From: Planctomycetia bacterium
GTDB taxonomy: Bacteria > Planctomycetota > PLA2 > JAEUHO01
Direction: 5' to 3'
DNA: 40,374 bases
Assembly: GCA_030618975.1 (NCBI GenBank)
Contig: JAUXCH010000001.1
Coordinates: 1-40,374 of the forward strand
The notes beneath the pieces were generated by a model. That model saw only the letters and a program-made list of their open reading frames with translations, was not told the origin of the DNA and made no database searches. Shown one piece after another: positions 16,073 through 22,279 of the stretch. A program made the translations under genes and the position numbers. Positions within the stretch are counted from its first letter, which is position 1. The number at the start of each line of letters is the position of its first letter.

Positions 16073-16267
16073 ATGGCGAGGATCGGGCGGTACGTGATCC
16101 GTGCAGTCGCGCACATCTGCGTCTGGGCGTACTACAGGCTGTTCGAGGTGCGGAATGCGGTGCGCATTCCGAAGCGCGGCCCGATCCTGATCGTCGCCAA
16201 CCACCCCAACGCGCTCGTGGATGCCGGCGTGGTCCTCTGTGCCGTCCCGCGTCCCGTCGCCTTCGTC
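16073..16267 (+). pseudogene. 5' fragment (about 65 codons) of a PlsC/LPLAT-family acyltransferase gene
   Basis: [64 protein letters not shown] carries block I (NHx4D). Family-like sequence ends at ~16267. The ORF then runs on to 16591 through unrelated, out-of-frame duplicated DNA. Confidence 0.7.
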
Positions 16268-16375
16268 GATCGTCGCCTCGGGACTGTTCGCGAGGATCTA
16301 CGCGGAGCGCGTGCGGTTCTGGTAGGTACGGCTCGCGGGTCTCGGACCGATCCGGAAGCCGCGCAGACGCTGGCG
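16268..16375 (+). repeat. decayed duplicate of 20455-20565 (internal segment of the downstream acyltransferase/YiiX ORF)
   Basis: 16268-16342 versus 20455-20529: 75 nt with 2 mismatches (16320 t/c, 16324 a/g; the second turns TGG into TAG in the homologous frame). 16343-16361 versus 20530-20548: 14 of 19 identical. Further on there is only patchy similarity with indels. Confidence 0.85.
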
Positions 16376-16447
16376 CGTGACGTCGATCCCGAAGAACGAG
16401 GCGCCGAACGTGGTGCGACCCTCGAACGAGTCGTGCATCCAGGAGAA

Positions 16448-16508
16448 GCGCCCGAAAGCGTGTTGCTTTCGGGCGCTCCCACCCACCCCGCCCGAAGTCC
16501 CGGGCGGG
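16448..16508 (-). terminator. two tandem GC-rich hairpins downstream of the lipoprotein gene
   Basis: Perfect 12-bp stem GCGCCCGAAAGC (16448-16459) / GCTTTCGGGCGC (16465-16476) with a 5-nt loop. Second 8-bp stem CCCGCCCG (16487-16494) / CGGGCGGG (16501-16508). Confidence 0.55.
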
Positions 16509-16792
16509 TCATTTCACGTCACCGGCTCAGACCCAGCGACGGCCGCTGCCCCGGTGGGAGCGGACTCGGACGACGACGATCCGGGCGATGAAGAGCCCGT
16601 CGACGGGTGTGCTCCGGGGCCGCCCCCGACGTCGCAGCCGCCCTTCGCGCCCCTTTCACCGTTGCAGACGTAGACCGGAATTTCGCCGGGGGTGTCGACG
16701 CGGATGTCGCCGGCCGGGCAGTTCGCGCCCGGAGGCTCGTCCGTGATGGCGGGCCCACGCCCGAGTCCGGGGTGCCGCCGACGGTTCCCGCG

Positions 16793-19374: not shown

Positions 19375-19384
19375 CCCCCCCCCC
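19375..19384. repeat. homopolymer C10 (G10 on the lipoprotein coding strand)
   Basis: Read directly. Lies 93-102 nt upstream of the lipoprotein ATG (19282). Confidence 0.95.
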
Positions 19385-19400
19385 AGGAGAGGGCGGCGGG

Positions 19401-19436
19401 GGCAGGGCGGCAGGGCGGCAGGGCGGCAGGGCGGCA
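19401..19436. repeat. tandem octamer (GGCAGGGC) x4.5, G-tract rich
   Basis: Reads ggcagggc x4 plus ggca, preceded by gggcggcggg (19391-19400). Gives at least 6 runs of G3 or longer on the + strand with loops of at most 5 nt. Confidence 0.95.
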
Positions 19437-19645
19437 TGAGGAAGGCCCATCAAAGGGGCCTCAATGCATGGGGTTCAACCTACATTCCGCAGGTCGCGTG
19501 ACTCGAACCGCGGAATATCCGAACGCGCTAACCCCGTGCACGGCAGTTGGTTCCGTCACTTGCAGGTAAGTTGCCTTGCCCTCCTCAGCACTACGAGGAT
19601 CTTCGATTCCTCCTGTTCGATGGTCTGTAGCTCGCGCTGGCCCTC

Positions 19646-22279
19646 GTGTTCCCGGAGGGCCACAGCCACCTGGACGCGGAGCTGAAGGCCATTCGGCGCG
19701 GCGCGGCCAGCATCACCCTCGGCGGCGAGGTCGGCGCCGGGTTCGAGCTCGGTCTCCGGGTCGTGCCGCTCGGGCTCCACTACGAACCCAAGCAGCAGTT
19801 CGACGGCGAGGTCCACGTCCGGGTCGGAGAGAGCTTCGGCATCCGGGACCTGGCGGACGTACCCCGCGAGGAGGCGCTGCGCACGATCCAGGATCGGATC
19901 GCCGCGTCGCTGCGCCCCCTGGTCCTGCACCTGGACCGGGTCGACCTCGAGCCCCTGGTGCGGGGCGTCGCCGAGGTCTACGACGAGCACCAGAGGGCAT
20001 CGGCGGGGCGGCTCGAGCCGCGATCGAAGGTGGACGTCGTCCGCATGTCGGCCGCGTGCCTCAACCACTTCCTCGCCGCCGATCCGTCGGCCGTGGACCG
20101 CACGCGACGCTACCTCCGCCAGGTCCAGCGGCTCGAACGCCGCGCCGGCATCCACGGCGAGGCGGTCGAGGTGCGCTCCCGGCCGATCCGAAGCCTCCTC
20201 GCGTTCGGCGGCACGCTGCTGCTCGTCGTGCTCGGCTTCCCCGCGTACCTCCTGGGAATCCTGACCGGCTACCTGCCCTACCGCCTGACCGACACGGTGG
20301 CCCGCGCCGTGGCGAAGCGCCGGAAGAAGACGACGCTGCCCCGACTGCGCATCGTCACGGGTGCCGTCGTGTTCCCCGTGACGTGGGGCGTCATGACGCT
20401 CTGCGTCTGGCTCTGGTCCCGGTCTCCCGGTTTCACGCTCTTCAGCCTGGTCGCGATCGTCGCCTCGGGACTGTTCGCGAGGATCTACGCGGAGCGCGTG
20501 CGGTTCCGGTGGGTACGGCTCGCGGGTCTTCTACCGATTCGCAAGCCGGGCATGCGCCGGGTGGCGCACGCCCGCCGACGCCTGCTCGAGCTGGTGGACG
20601 AGCTCGTCCAGCGGTACCGGACCGAGACGGGGATCCGACTGCTCCCCCCGCGGCGCACTTCCTGGACCTCCCGCGTGCCGTGGCGAAGGACCGCTGCGAT
20701 CATCCTGACCGGCCTGATCGTGTGGTTCGCGTTCGGGTTTCGCGACGCAAGACTCCGCGAGCTCCCGGATCGGCCGTCGCCCTGGGCCACCCTCGACACC
20801 GCGCGCGCCACGACGACGCTCGAACGCGACGCGCAGGAGCTGGTCTCGCTGCTCGACACGCTGGATCGACTCGAGACCGGGATGTACGAGCTGAAGAAGG
20901 GGTTCGACGCGGGGGAGCGCGACTTCACGGACGTGGCGGACGACCGCGCCATCCGCCGAGCGCTGCTCACCTACCTGTCGTGCCGCAGCGCGCTGTTCCG
21001 CCTCGCCTGGTTCTACCGGGCGCCCGACCGCCCAGACGAGTCCGAGCTCAGCGTGAGGGCCTTCGTGCTGGGGTACACGGCCGGCCTCGAGCTGTGTCGG
21101 CGCGGCCTGCAGCTGGTCTCGGTCTTCGACGGATGCCCCAACGCCATCCGCAAGCTCAACGAAGGCGATGCGGCGTGGTCCCTGCCCGCGAAGACGTACG
21201 ACCGGGTGCGGCAAAACCTCGCCAGCACCGACGTCTACGACGAGCTGGCCGTGGCCACGGCGCGCTACGAGCGCCTGGGGACCGAGCAGCCCCGGCCGAC
21301 GAGGGAACCCTGGGTCCGCATCTGGAACGAGGCGGACGAAGGCCGGGCCGTCGTGAAGAAGCTGTCTGACGAGCGGTGGACGCTCAAGTGGGACGCCGCC
21401 GTCGCGCGCGCGGAGGGCACCGCCGAGGAGGCCCGCTACGCGGCCAATAAACTCGTCGCGGGCCTCATCGGCGGGGTACGGATCCGCGAGGGGGAGCTGT
21501 CGGAAGGCCTCATCAGCGACGCGCAGGTCGAGTGGCTGCGCGAGGAGCACCTCGAGCCCGGCGACATCCTGCTCGAGCGCCGCAACTGGGCCCTGTCCAA
21601 CGTCTTCCTCCCGGGGTTCTGGACGCATGCCGCGGTCTACGTGGGAGGGCTCGACGGCGTACGCGCGTTGGGCATCCAGGACGACGAGCGCGTACAACCC
21701 GTCCTCGAGGCGCTCGCTCGACCGGACGAGCACGGCGCCACCCCCCGGATCGTCGAGGCGCTCGCTCCGGGCGTCATCCTGAGTTCCCTGGAGGAGTCCG
21801 TGGGCAGCGCGGATGCCGTGTGCGTGCTGCGGCCGAAGCTCGAGCCGGACGTGCTCGCCGACGCCGTGGCGCACGCCCTGAAGCACCACGGGAAACCGTA
21901 CGACTTCGACTTCGACTTCTTCTCGTCCGACCGCCTCGTCTGCACCGAGCTCGTGTACCGGGCCTTCCAGGGGCCGATCGATTTCGAGCTCCAGCACATC
22001 CTGGGGCGCCGGACGCTGCCGGCCCTCGGGATCCTGAGGAAGTGGGCCGCGGAACGGACCCACCCCGAGGCGCAGCTCGAGCTCGTCTGCTTCCTGGACT
22101 CGGACGAGGCCGCCGGCGTGGCGCGTCCGGGCACGGAGACGGAGTTGCTGGGCACCCTCGACCGACCCGCCCTCACCGTGCTCCAGGCGCACGGAGGTAG
22201 CTCCCGGATGCCACTCGCCGCCCTCGTCACCCTCGCCGTCCTCTTCCTCGCCGCGCTCCTCTTCCTCCGCCGGCGCTGA
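19646..22279 (+). CDS. N-terminally truncated PlsC-family acyltransferase fused to a TM region and a C-terminal YiiX/YaeF permuted papain-like (C92) domain
   Basis: The ORF opens (GTG 19646) exactly at acyltransferase block III (FPEGHSH), with an in-frame TAG at 19628. Followed by LGLHYEP, then TM helices (LLAFGGTLLLVVLGFPAYLLGILTG; VVFPVTWGVMTLCVWLW). C-terminus: PGDILLERRNWALSNVF..WTHAAVYVG..IVEALAPGV..VCVLRP..GKPYDFDFDFFSSDRLVCTELVYRAF. The 877-codon frame is intact. Confidence 0.7.
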   Translation: MFPEGHSHLDAELKAIRRGAASITLGGEVGAGFELGLRVVPLGLHYEPKQQFDGEVHVRVGESFGIRDLADVPREEALRTIQDRIAASLRPLVLHLDRVDLEPLVRGVAEVYDEHQRASAGRLEPRSKVDVVRMSAACLNHFLAADPSAVDRTRRYLRQVQRLERRAGIHGEAVEVRSRPIRSLLAFGGTLLLVVLGFPAYLLGILTGYLPYRLTDTVARAVAKRRKKTTLPRLRIVTGAVVFPVTWGVMTLCVWLWSRSPGFTLFSLVAIVASGLFARIYAERVRFRWVRLAGLLPIRKPGMRRVAHARRRLLELVDELVQRYRTETGIRLLPPRRTSWTSRVPWRRTAAIILTGLIVWFAFGFRDARLRELPDRPSPWATLDTARATTTLERDAQELVSLLDTLDRLETGMYELKKGFDAGERDFTDVADDRAIRRALLTYLSCRSALFRLAWFYRAPDRPDESELSVRAFVLGYTAGLELCRRGLQLVSVFDGCPNAIRKLNEGDAAWSLPAKTYDRVRQNLASTDVYDELAVATARYERLGTEQPRPTREPWVRIWNEADEGRAVVKKLSDERWTLKWDAAVARAEGTAEEARYAANKLVAGLIGGVRIREGELSEGLISDAQVEWLREEHLEPGDILLERRNWALSNVFLPGFWTHAAVYVGGLDGVRALGIQDDERVQPVLEALARPDEHGATPRIVEALAPGVILSSLEESVGSADAVCVLRPKLEPDVLADAVAHALKHHGKPYDFDFDFFSSDRLVCTELVYRAFQGPIDFELQHILGRRTLPALGILRKWAAERTHPEAQLELVCFLDSDEAAGVARPGTETELLGTLDRPALTVLQAHGGSSRMPLAALVTLAVLFLAALLFLRRR

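Follow-up and report, generated by a model that had tools for sequence, protein, structure and literature searches.

A disrupted acyltransferase-C92 hydrolase fusion gene in a Planctomycetia contig, with a displaced copy of its own sequence at the insertion joint

In a stretch of 40,374 nucleotides (nt) from a Planctomycetia bacterium (GenBank contig JAUXCH010000001.1, positions 1 to 40,374; hereafter, the window), a gene for a large two-domain protein is almost certainly truly disrupted. It belongs to a family in which an N-terminal acyltransferase is fused to a C-terminal hydrolase, and it lies in the window in two pieces, separated by DNA that has taken the place of some family sequence: ~150 nt (~50 codons) went out and 3373 nt (16267-19639) came in. 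At the very point where the N-terminal piece breaks off stands a 107-nt copy, called D', of a segment (D) located further downstream in the same gene. The identity between D' and D is unevenly distributed along the copy, and we propose an origin in three steps (duplicative insertion, gene conversion and deletion), to which we assign a probability of roughly 0.5. An earlier interpretation, made from the letters of the window (the sequence-only reading), had seen an acyltransferase gene split by an insertion of ~3.4 kb. The acyltransferase is there, albeit not as a plain PlsC protein but as part of a fusion of ~1000 amino acids (aa) with transmembrane and C92 hydrolase parts; the size of the incoming DNA stands as well, while the event was a replacement rather than a pure insertion.

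A fusion gene in two pieces

The family consists of proteins of ~945-1019 aa, in which an N-terminal PlsC-type acyltransferase domain (PF01553, spanning residues ~24-162 in intact members) is fused to a C-terminal permuted papain-like hydrolase domain of the YaeF/YiiX C92 type (PF05708), with transmembrane and helical/linker regions between the two. Both domains occur in a single open reading frame (ORF) in 19 homologous proteins (945-1019 aa). All full-length homologues found are uninterrupted, with the two parts contiguous, and at 44 related genome loci, the homologue of the N-terminal fragment is directly upstream of the remainder; the spacing between the two parts is ~165 nt in the closest loci versus 3373 nt in the window. 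None of the homologues found begins at the FPEG motif of block III, in line with the earlier view that the gene is split.

The closest homologues are 55-59% identical over 877 aa (59% for the best, in a search of 5.8 billion proteins), and the closest relatives of the gene all come from metagenome-assembled genomes of Planctomycetota. The window itself has a GC content of ~70%, and among the large proteins encoded in it, one contains DUF1570, a domain associated with planctomycetes. In one related Planctomycetota locus (L001), a stand-alone Peptidase_C92 gene (482 aa; 13020-14468) comes right after the acyltransferase-C92 fusion gene. No experimentally known function for the fusion family was found in the literature. 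Potential lipid-binding sites have been described in the permuted NlpC/P60 fold of the YaeF/YiiX type (PF05708; PMC3142127), and the lipid binding proposed there fits a lipid-modifying fusion protein. Intact relatives carry both the PlsC/LPLAT and the YaeF/YiiX domain, whereas the window copy is without a contiguous acyltransferase domain.

The N-terminal piece, fragment A (Table 1), aligns from its ATG at 16073 residue for residue with homologue residues 1-65, including NHPNALVD and PRPV; the HX4D motif of block I is present, NHPNALVD standing in the homologues' invariant NHPN..D column. A family-specific N-terminal hidden Markov model (HMM), made with residues 1-175 of 17 homologues, matches 16073-16273 with its positions 1-67 (E=5e-26) and the DNA from 19640 onwards with its positions 118-175 (E=1e-19). 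PF01553 alone gives fragment A 17.2 bits, under the cut-off of 23, because only 42 domain residues remain; it is the homologue alignment and the family HMM that bear out the family-like character and the block I previously read in codons 1-65.

The ORF of fragment A continues as out-of-family nonsense through the repeat copy to a stop at 16589-16591. HMM positions 68-117 (44-52 residues, depending on the homologue), which contain block II (LRxLGAVPVxR), find no counterpart in the window, whichever of the six frames is read, and the sequence-only reading was right that ~45 residues between NHx4D and FPEG are missing. Neither block II remnants nor a second gene copy were detected inside 16268-19645, using tblastn with eight homologues and the family HMM in six frames. 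Family sequence resumes at 19640, with FPEG at 19649, 3.4 kb from block I and behind an in-frame TAG (19628-19630) that stands ahead of the first possible start, GTG 19646; from there, the ORF of 877 codons is intact, as had been noted. This ORF has no PF01553 match; PF05708 covers its residues 636-791 (59.6 bits versus a cut-off of 27). What the family encodes in a single ORF is thus spread in the window over two separate pieces, and judged by its sequence, the window gene is by descent a disrupted member of the acyltransferase-C92 fusion family.

Table 1. Features of the disrupted locus and of a second scar upstream (window coordinates)
Feature	Position	Strand	Evidence
Second scar: orphan copy (92 nt) of the 3' part of the polyferredoxin gene (parent 11929-12019)	14839-14930	+	80% identity, one 1-nt insertion (frameshift), E=2.5e-16
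Fragment A: first 65 codons of the acyltransferase-C92 gene, with NHx4D (block I) and PRPV	16073-16266	+	E 1e-14 to 4e-21 versus homologues
D': orphan direct copy of D (107 nt), TAG in the homologous frame	16267-16373	+	self-blastn; Logan contigs L084 and L083 over its two edges
Stretch of 71 nt with codon-like GC3 periodicity	16374-16444		no family match
Two tandem GC-rich hairpins	16445-16508	-	-56 kcal/mol, z=-5.9
92 stop-free codons in the lipoprotein frame past its TGA, no start codon; weak DUF7151-like motif	16517-16792	-	motif E=0.049
Lipoprotein of 829 aa with GloVer repeats (TIGR03803), cargo of the insert	16793-19282	-	121.3 bits versus cut-off 44, 4 stretches
Upstream region of the lipoprotein gene, including TAG 19628-19630 that closes the downstream ORF frame	19283-19639
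C-D-E: rest of the gene, from block III (FPEG) via transmembrane and linker regions to the C92 domain; 877-codon ORF from GTG 19646	19640-22279	+	PF05708 59.6 bits; family HMM
D: parent of the 107-nt repeat, in frame within the 877-codon ORF	20454-20560	+	self-blastn; Logan contig ends in four runs

The repeat copy at the left joint

D' is the strongest repeat in the window: self-blastn aligns it with D in direct orientation at an offset of 4187 (96/107 identical, E=9e-35). The 75 nt with two mismatches and the weaker similarity to ~16375 that had been reported correspond to this alignment (16267-16373). Over its first 53 nt (16267-16319), D' matches D exactly; the first difference is at 16320/20507. 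The next 22 nt, up to 16342, include two mismatches, one of which (A for G at 16324) makes a TAG in the homologous frame, and the last ~36 nt include nine. With 11 mismatches in the 107 nt, an uninterrupted match of at least 53 nt is improbable (P~0.004; Fisher p=3-6e-4), so that identity along D' is strongly non-uniform. We confirmed that D' is out of frame with fragment A and that it carries a stop in its homologous frame. The parent copy D is not at the end of the insert; it is situated 814 nt inside the gene.

An 8-nt match, CGTCGCCT, occurs at 16255 and 16271. We considered it as microhomology at the joint between A and D' and rejected it, as the match is not located at the joint. Furthermore, in the frame of fragment A, D' (16268-16340) reads LRGARAVLV, which resembles the LRxLGAVPV of block II at nearly the right spacing, and tblastn with one homologue extends through it. 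As true block II, this string was rejected: the family HMM stops short of D', and the DNA is a copy of D. The resemblance is probably a coincidence, albeit one that could lead annotation software to predict an acyltransferase fragment longer than the real one.

The joints in independent assemblies

We have looked for the joints in the Logan assemblies of public sequencing runs, which are unitig-based with k=31; the runs concerned are SRR29278634, SRR19605679, SRR28925091 and SRR19605675. Logan contig L084 (SRR29278634) corresponds to window positions 12051-16296: it crosses the joint at 16266/16267 and ends 30 nt into the 53-nt exact repeat. Contig L083, from the same run, corresponds to 16290-19508; it crosses the joint at 16373/16374, and one of its ends is 30 nt before the D'/D difference at 16320. 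The same end point, 20477 (20507 minus 30), is shared by contigs L085-L088, each of which comes from a different run. These ends are the breaks expected of a k=31 graph that holds both repeat copies, and the left-hand joints and the repeat are therefore present in the reads, in four datasets. The gene is broken under either pairing of the arms at this fork. The possibility of a mis-assembly, raised earlier, is answered by the reproduction of both joints by an independent assembler: an assembly chimera is ruled against, and the rearrangement is genuine, in all four runs examined. For a metagenome-assembled contig, joints can thus be checked against public unitig assemblies even when the reads are not at hand.

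The inserted DNA

The cargo of the insert is a minus-strand lipoprotein gene with a GC content of 0.648 and GC at third codon positions (GC3) of 0.80, versus 0.71-0.73 and 0.92 in the flanking genes. The lower-GC gene and the hairpin terminators that the sequence-only reading had placed between the two gene pieces are thereby upheld (GC 0.648 for the gene; z=-5.9 for the hairpins, which probably terminate transcription of the minus-strand unit). Identity of the lipoprotein to its closest relatives is only 25-32%. By direct reading of the sequence, it has an N-terminal signal and a lipobox-like ...LVVTVGC.

The lipoprotein ORF closes with a TGA at 16793-16795, which is also present in the Logan contig. 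Beyond it, the frame reopens for 92 codons and closes at 16514-16516, directly before the two hairpins; within 16514-16795 on the minus strand, a DUF7151-like motif, ITDEPPGANCPAGD...YVCNG, can be recognised. The TGA may be a premature stop. The 71-nt stretch between D' and the hairpins (16374-16444) is probably the truncated end of the source locus of the inserted DNA. Its likeness by eye to a GloVer-repeat fragment was tested and rejected (no NCBIfam match; BLASTP E=0.74).

On the other side of the cargo, between the start of the lipoprotein gene and the gene remnant, about six copies of an 8-nt unit, AGGGCGGC, form a tandem repeat (19390-19436). In addition, a string resembling the T-arm of a tRNA, CGCGGTTCGAGTCACGCG, with a D-loop-like GGTTAGCGCG upstream, occurs at ~19484-19545 on the minus strand, and Logan contig L083 ends inside it (19508). 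As a tRNA or att site, it was rejected: neither ARAGORN nor Rfam (E up to 1) returned anything there. It may be a decayed fragment or due to chance. The right joint of the insert is at about 19631-19640.

No integrase or transposase is encoded in 16.2-19.7 kb or in any large ORF of the window, as had been stated before, and the window is without tRNA. Terminal inverted repeats, a target-site duplication or an att-like core were not found at the insert ends. The insert thus has neither the recombinase and terminal att repeats of an integrative element or genomic island nor the transposase, terminal inverted repeats and target-site duplication of an insertion sequence or transposon. It is not a mobile element, and its left end, which could be assigned to no gene or family, shows no defined element end.

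Fate of the two pieces

The acyltransferase domain is dead: a stump of 65 codons carries block I, block II has been lost, and blocks III-IV belong to a separate ORF; acyltransferase activity is to be considered lost. The 877-codon remainder is intact, with a GC3 of 0.92. In an alignment of 15 family sequences, all invariant residues, including the cysteines and histidines of the C92 region, are kept in the window protein. Over the last 600 codons, the contigs of three other runs (L086-L088) differ from the window by nine synonymous and six non-synonymous changes; the corresponding pN/pS of ~0.24 (binomial p~0.006) suggests continuing constraint on the coding sequence. Now situated downstream of the divergent upstream region of the lipoprotein gene, the remainder may still yield a hydrolase-only protein.

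The differences between runs fall in two tight clusters (20702-20815 and 21289-21505), with a local divergence of 4-7%, and the adjacent 2-kb HEAT-repeat gene shows none. A +1/-1 indel pair in the gene remnant, 5 nt apart, restores the frame within two codons. The clustered differences may be recombination tracts imported from a related lineage. For annotation, we recommend that 16073-16591 and 19646-22279 be flagged as the two parts of a single disrupted gene rather than labelled separately as "acyltransferase" and "YiiX-like hydrolase".

Origin of the rearrangement

The intact gene can be written as A-B-C-D-E, where A and C-D-E are the pieces extant in the window. In the origin that we propose, the foreign or ectopic DNA now at 16374-19639 (lipoprotein gene, terminators and promoter region) would first have been captured at the junction of a duplication of 19640-20560, either by Campbell-type integration (insertion-duplication) or by tandem duplication with captured DNA. 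The intermediate would have been A-B-[C-D']-insert-[C-D]-E, with the joints at 16373/16374 and ~19640 as the two ends of the duplicated segment. In the second step, gene conversion would have homogenised both ~0.9-kb copies, save near the right-hand edge of the homology. Finally, deletion of B and the left C would have joined A to D' at 16266/16267, making the disruption irreversible. Side by side with this scheme, we record that ...CCCGTCGCCTTC is the stretch that would abut the block II-like sequence in an intact or intermediate allele.

What speaks for such a history is the identity gradient; a second scar of like topology (see below) also counts in its favour. RecA-type recombination requires a stretch of uninterrupted identity. 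For this reason, the present 107-nt island, 75% identical on one side, would be too short in identity for later conversion, while a gradient of this kind would follow if D' had earlier formed the right-hand end of a much longer C-D' duplicate of ~0.9 kb. Under the duplication model, the identical side of D' is the one that would have adjoined the long, now deleted homology, and the 75%-identical side is the homology edge. From among the options listed in the sequence-only reading, the gradient thus favours partial duplication plus deletion, combined with gene conversion, over a single random event.

Several observations weigh against this reading. The three joints are illegitimate in any model, so that, counted in events, three steps are no more economical than one complex event. 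Neither the intermediate (A-B-C-D'-insert...) nor an intact allele was found in any dataset; there was no intact allele or closer relative among the 5.8 billion proteins, the GTDB species genomes and the JGI metagenomes (exact-pattern scans). The right joint (~19640) is without independent contig cover, L083 stopping at 19508, and a k=31 graph cannot separate a path from A into the continuation of D' from one into the continuation of D, a pairing that comes from the original assembler alone. As to the remainder, no promoter or ribosome-binding site for the 877-codon ORF was found, and the clustered differences between runs, if imported from lineages with an intact gene, may weaken the argument for selection. 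Comparison of neighbourhoods is neutral: the MBL-PDZ, polyferredoxin and HEAT-repeat neighbours of the window gene are beside the homologue in 0/82 related loci, and the HEAT-repeat gene beside the homologue in locus L002 is not detectably related to that of the window. With neighbour genes not shared, synteny gives no ancestral state.

The main rival of the three-step origin is a one-step event, possible though in our estimate the less probable: a break repaired by template switching or end joining, with D' as a 107-nt templated filler, 3.3 kb of foreign DNA captured and ~150 nt lost, followed by neutral decay of D'. It is coherent with the absence of a recombinase, with three illegitimate joints at which microhomology is slight or lacking, and with an orphan that is short and out of frame; moreover, a similar orphan of ~92 nt at a neighbouring insertion (see below) gives the impression that short templated patches are habitual in repair here. 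Such an event explains the topology, not the identity gradient. Neutral decay should be roughly uniform, and under it one would hardly expect 53 clean nt and then 11 mismatches within 54 nt (the P~0.004 given above), while a 107-nt island offers too little identity for gene conversion at a later time, given the RecA requirement.

An old tandem pair of acyltransferase-C92 paralogues around the lipoprotein gene, of which the left one has decayed to A and D' and the right one has lost A-B, would produce the same topology as the three-step origin and explain the three joints as deletions. The second C92 gene after the fusion gene in L001 indicates that local paralogy occurs in the family. We nevertheless regard this as improbable: 100% identity of D' and D over 53 nt misfits an old paralogue, unless conversion was recent, an E-like remnant of the left copy was not detected in 16374-16792, and a tandem pair of full fusion genes was seen in no homologue locus.

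Little can be said for an assembly artefact, that is, a chimeric contig with the gene intact in the organism. The contig does come from a metagenome-assembled genome, the 53-nt repeat is a fork in the assembly graph, the arm pairing and the right joint (~19640) are those of the original assembly, and L083 ends at 19508, short of that joint. Yet an independent assembler reproduces the joints from A into D' and from D' into the insert, the fork is present in four runs, D' differs from D and so must be represented separately in the reads, the gene is broken whichever way the arms are paired, and the intact allele is in none of the 5.8 billion proteins. The least credible explanation is an integrative or developmentally excised element, comparable to the nifD element or to skin in sigK. 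A 4187-bp unit does lie between the direct repeats D' and D, and both halves of the gene are in good condition otherwise, but this unit has no recombinase, there is no tRNA or att-like core at the insert ends, the block II codons are nowhere in the window, and D'-D recombination cannot restore the gene because its product, A-D-E, is out of frame and without B and C (~320 codons), so that precise restoration by excision is already refuted.

A second scar upstream

Apart from D'/D, the window has one significant repeat, which marks a second scar 1.3 kb upstream of the main one: an orphan copy of part of the polyferredoxin gene (Table 1), 2.9 kb downstream of its parent and just upstream of the MBL-PDZ gene. 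It is older than the scar in the acyltransferase-C92 gene. The associated insert (12097-14838) includes two toxin-antitoxin modules, a Phd antitoxin with a 142-aa ORF and a 90-aa ORF with a PIN toxin, and no integrase. Both scars have the same topology, in the order parent, short native gene stretch, recombinase-free insert and orphan for the elements involved, and the two orphans bracket a block that consists of the MBL-PDZ gene plus the N-terminal fragment. Such an arrangement suggests that the region is flexible and that events of this kind recur in it.

The polyferredoxin orphan is in frame upstream of the MBL-PDZ gene (14626-15996), for which a mechanical ORF call starts at GTG 14626 (456 aa). 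Translation probably begins instead at ATG 14965, directly ahead of a signal peptide, and the Logan gene call uses this start as well.

One could go further and view the two orphans of ~100 nt, each separated from its parent by an insert of 3-4 kb without a recombinase and placed at the far end of it, as footprints of a recurrent, undescribed mode of DNA uptake (for instance, small circles with a gene fragment that integrate by homology), and the remainder as a hydrolase-only protein made by insertion and under selection. We consider this rather doubtful. What we describe is genuine yet of an ordinary kind, a rearrangement that turned a gene into a pseudogene and left a scar that is unusually easy to read. 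As a single case of pseudogenisation, in an organism not in culture, it raises no question of general scope; its merit is to show cleanly, with support from reads, a gene disrupted without a recombinase and with an ectopic duplicate left where the pieces join, and the order of events is recorded in the identity gradient of that duplicate.

Comparison with known systems

Displaced, "orphan" gene ends are left over at the effector/immunity loci of type VI secretion systems, and the polyferredoxin orphan (14839-14930) fits such displaced gene ends well; the acyltransferase-C92 locus is reminiscent of them, too. For the effector/immunity arrays of Vibrio cholerae, successive insertions at one locus have been inferred (PMC5361080). 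Such arrays are polymorphic toxin loci with conserved recombination anchors, whereas the genes concerned in the window encode a polyferredoxin and a lipid enzyme, outside any system of this type.

For the acyltransferase-C92 gene itself, a parallel is insertion-duplication, the single-crossover (Campbell-type) integration of DNA that carries an internal gene fragment, as in mutagenesis with suicide plasmids. It predicts exactly the intermediate that we propose, in which the insert is located between direct copies, the left one without its 3' end and the right one without its 5' end. The window differs in that the left copy is reduced to 107 nt, that block II is lost and that no vector, circle or recombinase is seen; the intermediate is itself inferred.

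Homology-facilitated illegitimate recombination, in which one joint is homologous and the other illegitimate, is a further parallel (PMC3240628). In such recombination, foreign DNA without mobility genes is integrated with the loss of some recipient DNA and with illegitimate joints, much as in the window. The homologous anchor keeps its own position in that process, whereas D' is ectopic, 4.2 kb from its parent. By analogy, the locus would resemble the product of insertion-duplication or of homology-facilitated illegitimate recombination, subsequently reduced by deletion.

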